64,000 nucleotides of DNA from Lytechinus pictus (taxonomy: Eukaryota). Location of the stretch: contig NC_087250.1 in NCBI RefSeq assembly GCF_037042905.1, positions 26,042,001 through 26,106,000 on the forward strand, in the 5' to 3' direction. Below the pieces are notes generated by a model. It had not been told where the DNA came from and made no database searches. It saw only the letters and a list, made by a program, of their open reading frames with translations. Below, piece after piece: positions 34,745-62,903 of this stretch. Every line of letters begins with the position of its first letter. Positions within the stretch are counted from its first letter, which is position 1. The position numbers and the translations under genes were made by a program.

Positions 34745-36220
34745 AAATATAATCTAGAAAGTCAAGAGGGGCCTAAGCTTTCGATCCGAGCAGAATCTTC
34801 GTCGGAGGCAAAATGACAAACATATAAAGTGGAACAACCATAATATAGACCACAGACAAGCTACAGCAACACTAGAGACAAGGAGACAAAAGGGGCATTA
34901 GTAAGTAGAGAAGACCAATCAGGTTAGTGAAGGGGATGAAAGAAAAGGAGTAGGCAGACACAAAGGGAAGTTAGTGTAAGTAAGGCCAGTAAAAGACCTC
35001 AAGCCAAGAGGGATTAAGATAATGAGGCAGGCAACATCAAACAGGATCTGGAACGAAACAGTGATAGAGGGTATGAGGAAGGGATGAATAACAATAGAAT
35101 TAGTGAGAGGTGGGTCAAACAGGTTACAAAGAAAGGCATAATAAACTGGTGCATAAGAGTGGGGGAAAAGGGAAAAGAATGGGGAACAACTGATAATGTG
35201 CAAAAGACATATAAGTATATATGATAAAGCATTAAACAAACTAAGAGAAGAAGGTAAGTGTAAAGATGTATCTATGAGTGATATGTATATAAATATATCC
35301 AAAAAAGAAATGTCTATGAAAAAATATAAATACACATATGGTGTAACTGATATTGTAATCCGCTATATAGGTGTGACGGGAAAAAAACATAAGACTATAT
35401 ATTAGAAGGAAAAAAAGAACAAAAAAAAAAAACAACTGTATATATGAAAAAGAGGAAGCAAATTGCCTAAAAAGGTAAAAGCAAATATAGAAGAGAGGGG
35501 GTGTATTATGAGGAAACCAAGTATACATGTTAATAAGCAAATGCTGTAAATCTAAAAGAGGTGAGTGGAGAAAAAAAAATATATATAATGATTATTATAT
35601 CGCCTGAATAAGGAAGGAAAAATTGGAGCTGAGCTTGTATGAGATATGGGAGGAAGGTAGAGGAAGAAACTATTCAAAAGAGCTGAGGGGAAAAAATATA
35701 TGTATATATAAATTGAATGTGGATAAGAAAGAATAACAGTCGTTCCCCTCTTGGATGTTCAGGCCATGAGGTTGGGTGGTTCGAAGTCGTCTCATCCAGA
35801 ACTTCTCTCTGCTAGTACGGACTGAGTCAGGACGGGTACCTAAAGATTCGATGCCCTGTAGCATCATGTCAGTGATGGAGTGCTTGGGGAGGTTAAAATG
35901 GCGGCCAACTGGAGTGTCCAGCTTTGCTGTGTTGACGGTGGATCCGTGCCCGTAGAATCGTTTCTTGAGTGTGGTCTTGGTCTCCCCTATGTATTGTACC
36001 TTACAAACTCTGCAAGTGATGAGATATACAACATTAGTTGTAGTGCATGTGATGTTGCCCTTGATTTGGTGAGACAGGCTGGTAGAGTTGCTGGTGAAAG
36101 TGTCGCCCTCGTGAAGGTGTATTTCACATATGATGCACCTGTTGCTGGTGCATTTGAAGGTGCCATGTTGTCGTGATTATGTAAGGTTAGGTATCTGAAT
36201 CTGAATAGTTGGGTCAGCAA
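34745..36220 (-). mobile_element. Penelope-like retrotransposon, 5'-truncated (Cys-rich linker + GIY-YIG endonuclease + 3' UTR)
   Basis: HGTFKCTSNRCIICEIH...ITCTTTNVVYLITCRVCKVQYIGETKTTLKKRFYGH...VGRHFN...REKFWMRRLRTTQPHGLN. A hammerhead-like motif lies at the 3' end. Confidence 0.9.
34771..34809 (-). ncRNA. Minimal hammerhead-like motif with altered core (CCGACGA)
   Basis: Minus strand GCCT-CCGACGA-AGATTC..GGATC-GAAAGCTT-AGGC; the core differs from CUGANGA at the second base. Confidence 0.5.
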
Positions 36221-36527: not shown

Positions 36528-36712
36528 GTCTGGGCGTTGTGGCGTGCGCCTGTAATCCAAGCTATGCGGGGAATTGGAAGTTACAAATTGATGCAGAGGT
36601 TCGAGCCCTGGTCACGTCTTTCGGATGGTGACGTTAAAGGTCGGTCCCAGACTTAAATAATCATATCTGATTGATACACGTCTGACAAAACTCAAATACA
36701 CACACACACACA
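36528..36712 (+). mobile_element. 7SL-RNA-headed SINE, copy 1
   Basis: Head CTGGGCGTTGTGGCGTGCGCCTGTAATCCAAGCTA resembles the 7SL/Alu 5' end. Then a B-box-like GGTTCGAGCCC, a Deu-like GTCTTTCGGATGGTGACGTTAAA and a (CA)n tail. Confidence 0.8.
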
Positions 36713-39276: not shown

Positions 39277-41217
39277 ATGCTAACTAAAATGGCCACCAAC
39301 GACAAAGACGTCCGACTTCAGGTACTTTTTTGTCCACTCTGTCTCGAAAATTTCAAGAAGGCAACCCTCCTCAACTGTGGCCATACATTTTGCATAAACT
39401 GCTTGGAGGTGTACGATGACAATAATCGCCATCTTGACCACATGGTATGTCCTGTATGCAAGGAGTGTACTAATCTTGGGGTCGAGCGGGTTGCAGAACT
39501 CGCTCCTAACTACCTGGCCAGGAATCTGGAGGAAGATTTGCACTTGTTGACAGAGACTCTCTCGCCGAACGTTTGCTTAGAACACGGTAGGATTTTCAGG
39601 GATATCTTCTGTGAAGATTGTCAGGAATTTGTTTGCCTCTATTGCTTCATGGACTGCCATCAGGGACATGCCATCAACAAGAAAGAGGAGTTAGATAGAG
39701 AATTTGAAGACAGGGAAAGGGCTCTTGTTCGTCAAAGCGATACCAGGAAGTCCCAGATGGAAAAGGCCATCAATAGTACTGAACAACACAACAACAAAAT
39801 ATCTTCTCATCTGAACGCTTTGAAATCACAGATTAGGGACCAGTTTGAACAAAAGAGAGCCATACTCCTGAAGAATGAAACATTGCTCTTGGACACTGTA
39901 AATGAACATAGATCAGCATTAAACAAGGCATGTGATAACTGGGTTGATCACAACAAGCGGCTAATAGACAAGATAAACAGCTCGTTGTCGGTGATACGAC
40001 GTAAAGCGACTCGCTTTGTTGATTTAAGCACCCTTGAAGCCCATAACCTACTTTGTGGTAACCTAGAGAACCTACTAGCAGAAAGTGTTGAAGGAACATC
40101 TTTGAGTGATGTTGGTCAAGAGATCAGGAGAATACATTTTTGTCCAGCAGATGACAAACTTCTCGAGCTTGGTCATCTGGTTTTCAGGGAAGTCAGTTAC
40201 TCAGCTAGTAAGGTCCACGCTGAAAATCAGTGTAGTGAAGAAGACGATAGTACCTCCTCAAAAGAATGTAATCAAGAAGATGAAAGTAGCACCTCAACTG
40301 TTATTGAATCTGAAGCTCCTGCAGAATGTAGCATCGAAAGTCGCGGCAATGCCATCGCTAACGGGGAATCAAGTGATGCCCAAGCGGTTGTACTGCCCGT
40401 ACAAGCCCAGATAAGAACCTACACACTGAGTATTGCAAGAAAGATAGATTTAGCAGGGTACATGCGAGGCATTGCTGCCCTTTCCCCTGATTCTGTCGTG
40501 GTCGGTTATGGATTGAACCGAAACGGTGCAGATCGTTTTTCGGTGTCTGGAGAAAAGAAACAATATTTGAAGGGTAAAGTCGGGCAGGTCTGGGACATTG
40601 CCTTCTTAGGCGATGAGAGGTCCGTCGTTTCGCATGGTGCTCAAGCTTGTAAGGTGTACGACGTCAACAATACATTCACCGGTCTTCAATATACCCGCAA
40701 GGAAGGCAACAACTACTTCAGCTTATGCAGTGACCGCAACGGGAAGATCTACGCAGTCAATAACAATCCGGAGATCTACATCTTCGAAGGCACAACTGCT
40801 AACCCTCAGCAAATCGTGTCGACGGGGAACATTAAGCCAGAACACATCTGTATCACCAGATCAGGGTGGATGATCACTACCACGTGTTGCATCACACCAA
40901 GTCGGATCAACCTCTACGATAGGCAAGGCCATGTTGGTATCTCGCTTACTGCAAGTGATAACCATGAATATCTGTATGCTGCTGTGGATAGCGAGGAGAG
41001 GGTACTGGTGGCGAGAGTTCGTGAGAGATCGACCGCGTTCAAGCTGGCGCTGTACAGAATCCAAGAAACAAGACTCGTAGAGGAAAAGGCGTTTGCTCCA
41101 ATCAAACTCCCGCGACAAATCAAATGCAAATGGTGTTACATGGTAAGTCTCACACCAAACATGCTCGCGTTTGCCACGTTGGATCATCACTTGTATTTTA
41201 TTGAGCTTCTGATGTAG
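39277..41217 (+). CDS. Tripartite-motif (TRIM) E3 ubiquitin ligase-like protein: RING, B-box2, coiled coil, acidic linker, NHL-like beta-propeller
   Basis: Intact 646-aa ORF. C3HC4 RING (CPLC..CGHTFCINC..CPVC) and B-box (CLEH..FCEDCQEFVCLYC..HQGH). Helical region follows, then C-terminal propeller-type repeats (MRGIAALSPDSVVV, VWDIAFLGD, KPEHICITRSGWMI). Confidence 0.92.
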   Translation: MLTKMATNDKDVRLQVLFCPLCLENFKKATLLNCGHTFCINCLEVYDDNNRHLDHMVCPVCKECTNLGVERVAELAPNYLARNLEEDLHLLTETLSPNVCLEHGRIFRDIFCEDCQEFVCLYCFMDCHQGHAINKKEELDREFEDRERALVRQSDTRKSQMEKAINSTEQHNNKISSHLNALKSQIRDQFEQKRAILLKNETLLLDTVNEHRSALNKACDNWVDHNKRLIDKINSSLSVIRRKATRFVDLSTLEAHNLLCGNLENLLAESVEGTSLSDVGQEIRRIHFCPADDKLLELGHLVFREVSYSASKVHAENQCSEEDDSTSSKECNQEDESSTSTVIESEAPAECSIESRGNAIANGESSDAQAVVLPVQAQIRTYTLSIARKIDLAGYMRGIAALSPDSVVVGYGLNRNGADRFSVSGEKKQYLKGKVGQVWDIAFLGDERSVVSHGAQACKVYDVNNTFTGLQYTRKEGNNYFSLCSDRNGKIYAVNNNPEIYIFEGTTANPQQIVSTGNIKPEHICITRSGWMITTTCCITPSRINLYDRQGHVGISLTASDNHEYLYAAVDSEERVLVARVRERSTAFKLALYRIQETRLVEEKAFAPIKLPRQIKCKWCYMVSLTPNMLAFATLDHHLYFIELLM

Positions 41218-56605: not shown

Positions 56606-59600
56606 GAAAGAAATGGATGAAGAGAACAATGGTAGGCGTAGCTTAAATCAAGGTTCCCCGGAGCTATCTGCCCTTTTTTGGAAAAAAATTGGTAATGCCG
56701 AAAAAAATGTCTCTGCCGGGAATCAAACCCGGGCCCTGTTACACCCACACATGTAATAATCGCCCACAAATGTAATAACGCCCACAAATGTAATAACACT
56801 TTACCCATAAATGTAATAATTTCACCCACAAATGTAATAATGCACTTAACCCACAAATGTAATAATTTTTGATCGCCCACAAACATGACAAATGTAATAA
56901 TGACTTTACCCACATTTTGAAGGGATTTTTGGCGAATCCGTTTTAAACTAACATCCGATAGTAATGCATTCATATAGCACAAAAGTGCAAAGTCTTTTTT
57001 TCCAGACCCGGTTAATGCAAAGATTATAATATAAGTCCAAACTAAGATACGATAATGATATTCCAGTGGAATAAAAATAAGAATCGAGCTCAGTCTTTTC
57101 TCCAGACCCAATTAGAACTGGTGGAATAAATGTATTTGTTGTTGTTTTAACTTATACGGCGCGTATTGTGAATATATGCGCTAAGAGTAAATTGAGAATC
57201 AAGCGTAGTCTTTTCTCCAGACCCGGTTACTTAAAACTAAAAACTAAAACCCTTTACCCACAAATGTAATAATGCACTTTACCCACAAATGTAATAATTT
57301 TTGATCGCCCACAAATCTAATAATGACTTTACCCACAAATGTTATAAACTTGAAGGGATTTTTGGCGAATCTGTTCTAAAGTAAAACCCTATAGTAATGT
57401 GTTCATATAGCTCAAAGTCACAGTCTTTTTTCTCCAGACCCGGTTATGTAAAACATCGTAACAGTTTAGCGTAGTCTTTCCTCCAGACCCAAATATTTCA
57501 AATAACAAATAAAAAATAATAAACAATAATAAAAAAAAGACCCCACGATCTTATTCATTTTGAACAAAATGTAAAAAGAACAAAAACAGACCCTGCAATC
57601 TTTTCAACACTGAATAGCGTGTGTGTGTGTGTGTGTGTATTTGAGTTTTGTCAGACGTGTATCAATCAGATATGATTATTTACGTCTGGGACCGACCTTT
57701 AACGTCACCATCCGAAAGACGTGACCAGGATTCGAACATCTGCATCAATTTGTAACTTCCCCACGTAGCTTGGATAACAGGCGCACGCCGCAACGCCCAG
57801 CATCGAAATATGGTGTAGTCTTTGTTCCAGCCCCGGTTATTTCAAAATAGCAAATCATAAAGAACAATATCAACAAAGACCCCACAATCTCATTGATGTT
57901 GAATAACTTGAAAATATAGCGTAGACTTTCTTCAAGACCCAGTTTTTTTTAAATAACAAATCATAAAAAAGATATATAATAATAATAAAACAAAGGCCCC
58001 ACAATCTATTGATGTTGAATAACTGTTGTCGTTGTTGTTATCTTTGGTTTTGAGGCGCGTACCATTCAGATATGAATATTCACATGGAAATATAGCGTAG
58101 TCTTCCCTCCAGACCCACTTATTTCAAAATTACAAATAATTTTAAAGAGTCAACAAGTAACAAAGACCACCACTATCTTATTAATGTTAAATAACATGGA
58201 AATATAGCGTAGTCTTTCATCCAGACCCAGATCTTCAAATAACAAATGATGAATAATAATAATAAATAAATAATAAGAAGAAAAACAAACAAAAGAACCA
58301 CGATCCTATTTATGTTGAATAACATGGAAATATAGCGTAGTCCTTCATCCAGACCCAGTTATAAAAATCATTAAAAACACAACAACAACAACAAAACAAA
58401 GACCCTGCAATGTTATCAACATTGAATAACATGGAAATATGGTGTAATCTTTGCTCCAGACCCAGTTATTTCAAAATAGGAAATTATCAGAAACAATAAA
58501 AACAAAAAAAAAACAATATTTACAAAGACCCCCCAATATCATTGATGTAGAATAACGTTGTTGTTGTTGTTATTTTGGGTTTTAAGGCGTGTATCATTCA
58601 GATATGAATATTTACGCCTATGATTAATTTGTCGTTTGTGGTATGCGTTATCATAAGGTTTTTATAGTTTGGAAGATGCTGGGGTCTAAGTTTAAAGATT
58701 AAAGTTTCGCTCAAATTGTATTTTTAAGAGAACTGGGTGTGGGGTAAAGACAACACTCTTAACCCAAGCATTTTAACTGGGTTTAATTTTGAAGATTGGT
58801 CTTAGCTTTCATTTTTTGTTCCATATTTATTTATCTTTTAAAAAACCGGGTCTAGACGAAAGACTAAGCATAATACTCGTGTTATTCCACAGGAATAAGA
58901 ATTTGACAAAGTCTTATGTTTTTAAGATTGTTTGAATTATTTTTCAAATGACTGGCTCTGGAATAATGACAACGCTCTAAACATGTGCTTTTCTACATAG
59001 TCTCAATCTGGAGGATTGTTGGTTCTTAGATTCGTTGTTGGGGGTTGGGTTTTATTGTTTTATTTATTCTTGAAATAAATGTGTCAGGAGGAAAGTCTAC
59101 AATCGATCTTCATGTTATTCCACAGTAATTAGATTATTGGGTATTCGTTTTAGAATATTTGTAAAAACTATTTTATTTTTTTCAAATAATAACCAAGTCT
59201 GGATAAAGGATGTTTGCTTTACCCATGCATTATTACAATGTTTTGTAGGGGTCTTAGTATCATTGAAAAAAAAAACTGGGTGTGGGGTAAAGACATATTT
59301 TTTTACTGGGTGTAACTTTTGAAGATTGGTCTTAGATTTGAAGTTTTTTTAATTCATTTTGTAAATAACCGGGTCTGGAGGAAAGAGTACGTTTTAAAAC
59401 TCGTGTTATTCCACAAGAATTAGAATATGATAGGGTCTTACGTTAGAATATTTTTTTTCGTAAGTTTTTTTTTTATGATTAGGTCTGGAATAAAGACAAC
59501 GCTCTGAACCTCTTTTTAAAACAGGTTCTTAGGTTGAAAGATTGTTTGGTCTTAGATTTGGAATTTTTTAAGTATTACTATTAGCGTTAAAAAAAAATGG

Positions 59601-62817: not shown

Positions 62818-62903
62818 TCCACCGAGCCGGATTCGAACCAGCGACATAAGGTTAATCATCAATCATCTACAGTCCTCCGCTCTACCAACTGAGCTATCGG
62901 TGG
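62818..62903 (-). tRNA. tRNA-Tyr(GTA), intron-containing variant (possibly pseudogene)
   Basis: CCACCGA TAGCTCAGTTGGTAGAGC GGAGGA CT GTA G [13-nt intron] AACCTT ATGTC GCTGGTTCGAATCCGGC TCGGTGG A, with a T7 terminator 5 nt downstream; A31-A39 mismatch. Confidence 0.75.

Follow-up and report, generated by a model that had tools for sequence, protein, structure and literature searches.

A probable 7SL-headed SINE family in the sea urchin Lytechinus pictus, with a tRNA-type B box and a Deu/Nin-like core

Introduction

SINEs derived from 7SL RNA include Alu, the most successful mobile element of humans, and each new lineage of them bears on which part of 7SL makes a SINE succeed. The 7SL ends retained by such elements have been read as evidence that a folded Alu domain and binding of SRP9/14 are needed for efficient retroposition. 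7SL-derived SINEs are known from supraprimates and hagfish, to which a shrew-mole family has recently been added (Kojima 2020, PMC7245038; Vassetzky et al. 2026, PMC13023118; here and below, what we cite from these two papers is limited to the excerpts at hand). In these excerpts, a nearly identical central deletion of ~183 nt has left both ends of 7SL in place in all described lineages (PMC13023118, PMC7245038), and independent origins are called 'extremely rare' (PMC13023118). A second group of relevance is the SINEs with a central Deu (Nin) domain, which spans ~70-120 nt in invertebrates and 330 nt in vertebrates (PMC4824008).

Here we describe a true and probably undescribed 7SL-headed SINE family of a sea urchin, which would be a SINE1/DeuSINE hybrid in its manner of working. 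It was recognized from two copies in a 64,000-nt stretch of Lytechinus pictus DNA (the window), and the host genome was then searched for its relatives.

Two copies of the SINE in the window

The window contains two full-length copies on opposite strands (36530-36712 on the plus strand and 57619-57800 on the minus strand; Table 1), within 1-2 bases of where an earlier note on this DNA, made from its letters alone, had placed them. Copy A starts with CTGGGCG and ends with (CA)n. The two copies can be aligned end to end, with the similarity stopping sharply at both limits (87% mean column identity, flanks counted in). Motifs taken from the head, the core and the tail each have exactly two occurrences in the window when up to three mismatches are allowed, while 0 of 100 shuffled sequences gave two matches (shuffle mean 0.00).

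Each copy had been described as sitting inside a different older element, which is partly borne out: copy B lies in a composite non-coding repeat, and copy A lies ~350 nt from a 168-aa open frame with a GIY-YIG nuclease motif, possibly the remains of a Penelope-like retroelement. The window also holds a single-exon RING/B-box (TRIM-like) ORF of 646 aa, with 98% identity to a protein named for Lytechinus pictus and 89% to one of L. variegatus. The host is accordingly a sea urchin of the Lytechinus type, and the first of these matches bears out the echinoderm host proposed earlier.

Table 1. Features of the window and of the host genome referred to in the text (plain numbers are window positions; positions with a contig name are in the host assembly)
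Feature	Position	Strand	Basis
Full-length SINE copy A (183 nt, of which 6 nt are a private insertion)	36530..36712	+	genome search: self match 100%, other copies 96%
7SL-derived head, copy A (helices 2-4 of the Alu 5' domain)	36530..36581	+	Rfam Metazoa_SRP, host 7SL alignment
Box-A-like GGGCGTTGTGG, copy A head	36532-36542	+	
Private 6-nt insertion in copy A head	near 36573-36578	+	absent from 29 other aligned copies
B-box-like GGTTCGAGCCC, copy A	36598..36608	+	read from sequence, conserved across copies
Short Deu/Nin-domain-like core (GGTCACGTCTTTCGGATGGTGACGTTAAAGGTCGGTCCC), copy A	36610..36648	+	motif counts; by-eye match to BivaMD-SINE1 Deu part and host locus L069
3' stem-loop, presumed LINE recognition module, copy A	36648..36684	+	fold z on a typical copy, covariation count
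G-to-T change breaking one stem pair, copy A	36653	+	
Spacer ACAAAACTCAAATA and (CA)n tail, copy A	36685..36712	+	tail length differs among copies
Full-length SINE copy B, lacking the 6-nt insertion	57619..57800	-	alignment to copy A
7SL-derived head, copy B	57755..57800	-	2 mismatches to the 27-mer head pattern from copy A
B-box-like TGTTCGAATCC, copy B	57728..57738	-	
Deu/Nin-like core, copy B	57688..57726	-	
3' stem-loop, copy B, intact	57652..57688	-	
Spacer and (CA)n tail, copy B	57619..57651	-	
Tail module related to that of the SINE, from another retroposon family (stem-loop shared, compensatory changes present), then (CAA)n	58556..58618	-	z -4.68
~930-nt non-coding stretch	58556-59490	-	
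168-aa open frame, GIY-YIG motif	35670-36176	-	Pfam E 2.4e-5
646-aa TRIM-like ORF	39277-41217	+	
tRNA-Tyr (GTA) gene, 86 nt	62818-62903	-	Rfam 53.7 bits, ARAGORN
7SL gene L037 with the compensatory helix-2 variant	C12:4895279-4895577		
Head-to-tail SINE pair	C1:19236994/19237190		
Head-to-tail SINE pair	C2:61992460-61992738		
Head-to-tail SINE pair	C4:9657048-9657334		
Head-to-tail SINE pair	C7:25357260-25357544		
Head-to-tail SINE pair	C7:25365591-25365875		
Head-to-tail SINE pair (L039)	C18:1364626-1364910		

The head is derived from 7SL RNA

According to Rfam, nucleotides 1-47 of a typical copy align with positions 1-44 of the Metazoa_SRP model (29.6 bits, E 4.8e-6), with helices H2, H3 and H4 all paired and in register with the model. 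The head of copy A scores 24 bits (E 2.3e-4), and other copies retrieved in the genome search score 32-35 bits. These scores are sub-threshold (the Rfam gathering cut-off is 70 bits), which is expected because just 44 of the 299 model positions are covered; the seven full-length 7SL genes of the host score 272-283 bits. When compared with these genes directly, nucleotides 3-35 of the SINE are identical at 32 of 33 positions, and the single difference is an extra A in a loop. The local alignment score of the head with 7SL nucleotides 1-50 is 60-63, a score that none of 500 shuffled heads reached (mean 12, maximum 22). Folded in isolation, the head is no better than its shuffles (z +0.26). Judged by these alignments, the first 44-46 nt are derived from the 7SL RNA of this lineage, as the earlier note had proposed for the head.

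We consider it extremely improbable that the head resembles 7SL by chance or convergence and has its real source in a tRNA or another small RNA. The canonical tRNA-type B box downstream of the head would fit such a source, but the near-identity to host 7SL and the shuffle result go against it, and so does the Rfam search, in which Metazoa_SRP is the best match (with its three helices in register) and no tRNA matches the head of copy A or of a typical copy at E of 10 or below. ARAGORN also finds no tRNA at the head; the only tRNA that it finds in the window is an unrelated tRNA-Tyr gene (anticodon GTA), which is long enough to hold an intron. The head thus passes the comparison with tRNAs and shuffled controls on which the earlier note had made its reading depend. 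We note weak Rfam matches of the head to mir-1268 (window positions 36529-36579, E 0.68; L006:1498-1550, E 0.025), a family that we take to be Alu-derived, so that the match would be a by-product of Alu-likeness.

The head also carries information on which 7SL gene it came from. In helix 2, the SINE head shares the paired variant ACU...AGU with a single 7SL gene of the host (L037), while the other six genes have ACC...GGU, so an L037-like 7SL gene is indicated as the probable source. More generally, host-specific 7SL letters are present in the matching part of the head, which places its origin within this lineage and rules out inheritance from, or contamination by, mammalian Alu. The independent origin in an invertebrate host that the earlier note had inferred is therefore supported by the host's own 7SL genes.

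Beyond the head, we found nothing of the rest of 7SL in the SINE. The body and tail score 15 against 7SL from nucleotide 51 to the end, which is at the level of shuffled sequences (mean 15.3, with 289-296 of 500 shuffles scoring as well), so the 3' half of the Alu domain is absent; in BLAST comparisons with host 7SL, the head alone matches.

A young, dispersed family in the host genome

We searched the 812-Mb host assembly (368 contigs) for further copies. With up to three mismatches, a 33-mer from the head is found at 1,306 places and a 33-mer from the core at 1,582 places, and a 34-mer from the tail is found at 758 places when matched exactly; the reversed patterns used as controls gave 0 matches in all three cases. 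A search with copy A returned 1,610 first-look candidates, and all 40 of those that were scored are full length and 96-100% identical. The earlier note had reported two copies; both are real, and the number is what changes, since the family has well over 1,000 members and is dispersed, not restricted to the window.

We aligned 29 further copies together with their flanks, and they are near-identical to one another and all lack the 6-nt insertion of copy A. The counts of junctions, truncations and target site duplications (TSDs) given below are for copies with an intact 3' end in the extracted loci (two loci that duplicate the window were dropped). Compared with one young copy, 74 full-length copies have a median identity of 96.6% (range 76.7-100%), to be read with the fact that the sample (~100 copies in extracted loci) is skewed to young copies, because loci were picked by best score or exact match. 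Older subfamilies are 77-86% identical, two copies (L066 and L067) are strongly diverged, and other subfamilies are marked by a duplicated GAAGTTCGAGGTTCGA stretch or by AGCTGTGGGG in the head. The family is young, recently amplified to well over a thousand copies, many of which are nearly identical.

Chimeras of small RNAs made by template switching are a known by-product of LINEs (PMC4824008; PMC7245038, in excerpt), and each copy could in principle be an independent chimeric retropseudogene, made when a LINE reverse transcriptase switched from SINE RNA to 7SL RNA, with no family descended from master copies. We rate this as very improbable, because the junction between head and body is identical in 74 of 74 full-length copies, the copies have in common diagnostic changes that are absent from 7SL (e.g. 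the extra A in CCAAGCT), and the subfamily structure described above exists. What we observe is a uniform, dispersed family of many copies instead of sporadic retropseudogenes.

The body has a B box and a Deu/Nin-like core

About 17 nt past the head, GGTTCGAGCCC is conserved across the copies, and GGTCACGTCTTTCGGATGGTGACGTTAAAGGTCGGTCCC follows close behind it. The former is B-box-like and fits the consensus of a tRNA-type B box, in agreement with the earlier note.

In published alignments, the printed rows of BivaMD-SINE1 read GTCACGG.TCTTTCGGATG..AC.TTAAA...GAGGTCCCG, and this segment is placed in the Deu/Nin part, after the Meta domain (PMC4824008). By eye, the stretch TCTTTCGGATG..ACGTTAAA..GGTC..CCC of the SINE matches the Deu part of those rows. 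A second likeness comes from within the host genome, where one locus (L069) has A- and B-box-like motifs and, further downstream, CGTCCTTCGGATGGGACGTTAAATGGAGGCCCCGTGTCG, followed by a tail that differs from that of the SINE; its head is not called as a tRNA by Rfam at E of 1 or below. Considering both by-eye comparisons, a Deu/Nin-like label for the core seems reasonable. The resemblance to the Deu/Nin domain claimed earlier extends, by eye, over ~40 nt of the domain.

The earlier note had further proposed a chimera of 7SL with a tRNA/DeuSINE. We looked for a parent with a tRNA head and the core or tail of the SINE in 21 core-bearing copies on host contig C1 (16 with a 7SL head, five 5'-truncated), in 14 further tail-bearing copies on the same contig (10 with a 7SL head, four 5'-truncated), and in six matches of a degenerate Deu motif in the host genome (two old 7SL-headed copies, L069 and three unrelated sequences). 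None of them is such a parent, and the step from one to the chimera stays conjectural. Searching the full text of the open-access SINE literature with the core string gave unrelated primer matches only.

The 3' hairpin, the tail and the search for a LINE partner

The last ~65 nt of the SINE consist of CAGACGTAAATAATCATATCTGATTGATACACGTCTG, then ACAAAACTCAAATA and then (CA)n of variable length. In a typical copy, the tail hairpin has a z-score of -4.86, with one of 200 shuffles folding as well. Using 12 variants chosen from 25 distinct ones, 92.3% of the cells are paired in the hairpin, as compared to 22-44% with slid partners, and two pairs are changed on both sides (A-U to G-C in one, A-U to U-A or G-C in the other). 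The compared variants are related to one another, so this covariation supports the hairpin but does not prove it. Among SINEs, ending in a conserved 3' hairpin and a short-repeat tail is characteristic of those that rely on a 'stringent' LINE.

A related tail module is found in the window at the end of another retroposon family (Table 1), and tail-only copies of this (CAA)n-tailed family, ~65-70 nt long, occur at unrelated sites. Directly after one such copy in the host genome (L103, C5:16218676) comes a 7SL-headed SINE, which was thus inserted at the microsatellite tail, either nested in it or next to it. In the window, the module is the end of the ~930-nt non-coding stretch listed in Table 1, which is also found at 12 loci (L070-L081), eight of which contain no ORF of at least 100 aa. 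This stretch is part of a composite repeat of at least 3.3 kb that has internal direct and inverted units of ~250-500 nt and at least 754 first-look candidates in the genome. We rejected the stretch as a discrete non-autonomous element, as it lies within the non-coding composite and homology runs past the (CAA)n.

We looked for a LINE that carries the tail of the SINE. A pattern that bars the letters of the SINE just before GACGT, with the stem base barred too, gave three matches, all of which are deletion variants of the SINE. With the stem base allowed there are 29 matches: the three least SINE-like are two SINE variants and one tail-only copy, and the other 26, going by the matched letters alone, are SINE copies, mostly with one C lost. 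All 44 exact tail matches on contig C1 are SINE copies as well. A search with the reverse transcriptase (RT) model PF00078 gave 12,239 candidates, and among the 150 that were scored there are many intact ORFs of ~1,000-1,300 aa. The tail of the SINE is absent from three 1.5-kb stretches downstream of three groups of RT ORFs, a sample that started beyond the ORF ends and is far too small to exclude a partner. The earlier note had put forward a comparison of the 3' tail with host LINE tails as the way to the partner; we found no RT-encoding element with the tail of the SINE among the pattern matches, the C1 matches or the three RT-downstream stretches.

Marks of retroposition and co-duplicated copies

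Among 88 copies with an intact 3' end, 74 are full length and 14 (~16%) are 5'-truncated, with truncation points that cluster at SINE nucleotides 79-82, within a small hairpin of the core. Five 5'-truncated copies on contig C1 (L054, L055, L088, L089 and L094) start within a few bases of GTCTTTCGG, in the GUCAC...GUGAC core hairpin, where the reverse transcriptase may tend to pause or to switch. TSDs, which the earlier note had proposed to look for, are short and variable: they reach at least 6 nt in 12 of the 74 full-length copies as compared to 28 of 1,454 controls with mismatched flanks (examples are 9, 10 and 13 nt long), and are shorter than 4 nt or missing in 44 of the 74. With its truncations, TSDs and variation in tail length, the SINE family carries marks of target-primed reverse transcription.

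Not every copy is an independent retroposition, as some have spread as passengers. At two further loci (L012 and L087), the SINE is accompanied by the same flanks as copy B (~91% identical), which indicates that copy B was probably carried along in a duplicated unit, instead of inserting separately into an older element as had been proposed. At ~7.91-7.92 Mb of host contig C10, three 7SL genes stand in tandem, and each has a SINE copy of an old subfamily (L031, L035 and L036) ~35 nt upstream, in the same orientation and with flanks in common. This looks like one insertion in the promoter region of a 7SL gene that was then duplicated with the gene array.

Head-to-tail pairs of the SINE with a spacing of ~190 nt are also seen at several loci (Table 1). 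One of these pairs (L039) has flanks in common with a single copy (L040), which shows at least the pairs of this type to be tandem duplications within a larger repeated unit and not a dimeric SINE. Flanks are also shared between L085 and L086.

Taken to the extreme, these observations could mean that there is no self-propagating SINE, and that most copies owe their spread to larger repeats that carried them along, or to segmental or tandem duplication. The flanks of copy B, the three copies at the same place upstream of the 7SL genes, the flanks shared by L039/L040 and L085/L086, and the presence of several copies within the same types of repeats are what one would cite for it. We find it improbable as an account of the family, since the flanks differ without relation to one another in most of the 74 full-length copies, insertions into the same type of repeat are at different positions (L004, L011 and L016), TSDs, which reach up to 13 nt, are in excess of the control, and retroposition is marked by the 5' truncations and by (CA)n lengths that vary.

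Origin and proposed mechanism

Putting these results together, we hold it to be highly likely that the element is a non-autonomous SINE of ~177 nt that arose in the sea-urchin lineage by fusion of the 5' 44-46 nt of host 7SL (helices 2, 3 and 4) to a pre-existing SINE-type body and tail. The fusion may have occurred by template switching from the RNA of a Deu-type SINE onto 7SL RNA, a route already suggested for the hagfish element and for DeuSINEs with a 5S head (PMC4824008; PMC7245038, in excerpt). In the mechanism that we propose, Pol III would transcribe master copies from the 5' end of 7SL, using an internal promoter predicted to consist of the 7SL box-A region (GGGCGTTGTGG) and the B box (GGTTCGAGCCC) ~50 nt downstream; the former is homologous to the box A marked in human and hagfish 7SL in the excerpts of PMC7245038. 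The reverse transcriptase of a stringent-type LINE would then recognise the 3' stem-loop and (CA)n, and insert copies of the SINE RNA elsewhere through target-primed reverse transcription. As has been proposed for Alu, the 5' Alu domain that the SINE has kept may remain able to bind SRP9/14 and to carry the RNA to ribosomes engaged in synthesis of the LINE protein.

How new the family is depends on what has been catalogued. We lean, without strong conviction, towards counting it as the fourth independent birth of a 7SL SINE, the first outside vertebrates, and the first that combines the 5' Alu domain only (7SL nucleotides 1-44) with a tRNA-type B box and a Deu/Nin-like fragment. It is unlikely, but a possibility to be taken seriously, that the family is real but listed already, as a SINE of the 7SL type or an unclassified one, in Repbase, Dfam, SINEBase or a sea-urchin annotation, in which case there is nothing new. 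The repeats of sea urchins were mined early for Repbase (SINE2-1_SP to SINE2-6_SP), and automated repeat libraries exist for many echinoderm genomes. On the other hand, in the excerpts we use, specialists stated in February 2026 that 7SL SINEs are known just from supraprimates, hagfish and the new shrew-mole family (PMC13023118), Kojima 2020 agrees on the known lineages (PMC7245038), and the open-access full-text literature gave no 7SL-derived SINE from sea urchins (including Lytechinus pictus), echinoderms or invertebrates. The earlier view that 7SL SINEs are described only from Euarchontoglires and hagfish fits the open-access literature, with the shrew-mole family since added (PMC13023118, in excerpt).

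Comparison with described 7SL and Deu SINEs

With more than 1,000 copies and only the first 44 nt of 7SL, the young sea-urchin family is a natural counter-example to the need for a full Alu domain. If it is as active as it looks, a 7SL SINE can succeed without the 3' half of the Alu domain and without the recurrent deletion of ~183 nt. In that case, the smallest part of 7SL that is of use would be the box-A/H3-H4 module, by which SRP9/14 may still be recruited. The family offers a minimal construct for studies of SRP9/14 binding, Pol III promoter function and retroposition. For Lytechinus, which is a laboratory model, the family also represents a dated, lineage-specific system of insertion markers.

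As in other SINE1 elements, the 5' head is homologous to 7SL from about nucleotide 1; the 3' end of 7SL, common to all described SINE1 lineages, is not retained. The closest described element is SINE1-1_EBu of hagfish (PMC7245038, in excerpt, for all statements in this paragraph). Like the sea-urchin SINE, it has a head taken from its host's own 7SL, independently of Alu and B1, and is viewed as a fusion between 7SL and an older SINE. It, too, is young, its copies are similarly numerous (2,363 as compared to ~1,300-1,600 in the sea urchin), and its tail is likewise not poly(A) but ends in a microsatellite, which implies a partner other than L1. The differences lie in how much of 7SL is kept and in what was added to it. 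Of 7SL, SINE1-1_EBu has 96 nt from the 5' end and ~44 nt from the 3' end, which make up a full Alu domain with the central deletion, whereas the sea-urchin SINE keeps nucleotides 1-44/46 only; its B box is derived from 7SL, whereas that of the sea-urchin SINE is of the tRNA type; its body and tail come from an RTE, the identified partner, whereas the sea-urchin body is a short Deu/Nin-like piece; and its TSDs are ~17 bp long, whereas those of the sea-urchin SINE are mostly shorter than 6 bp.

Alu, FLAM and B1 and the shrew-mole Urop are similar to the sea-urchin SINE in having a head from 7SL nucleotide 1 with the box-A region and the H3/H4 hairpins (PMC13023118, in excerpt, here and for the rest of this comparison). 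In contrast to it, they consist wholly of the 5' and 3' ends of 7SL after the deletion of ~183 nt, while nothing of the 3' end is present in the sea-urchin SINE; their tails are poly(A), and L1 mobilises them; and they are without a foreign body or a stem-loop tail, both of which are present in the sea-urchin SINE. In the tree shrew (Tu type I/II) and the bushbaby (GarnAlu), parts derived from 7SL and from tRNA SINEs are also joined in one element, but as fusions of complete monomers that descend from the supraprimate 7SL SINE, whereas in the sea urchin a 44-nt fragment of 7SL replaces the 5' part of a single monomer (PMC7245038, in excerpt).

Among Deu SINEs, the head-swapped elements (SINE3/AmnSINE1-type, 5S-headed) have, like the sea-urchin SINE, a Deu/Nin-type centre behind a replaced Pol III promoter module, for which template switching has been proposed (PMC4824008). 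The replacing RNA is 5S rRNA in those DeuSINEs, and 7SL, with ~40 nt of Deu/Nin-like sequence, in the sea-urchin SINE. SINE2-3_SP, compared here by its description, is a tRNA-headed DeuSINE of a sea urchin (PMC4824008).
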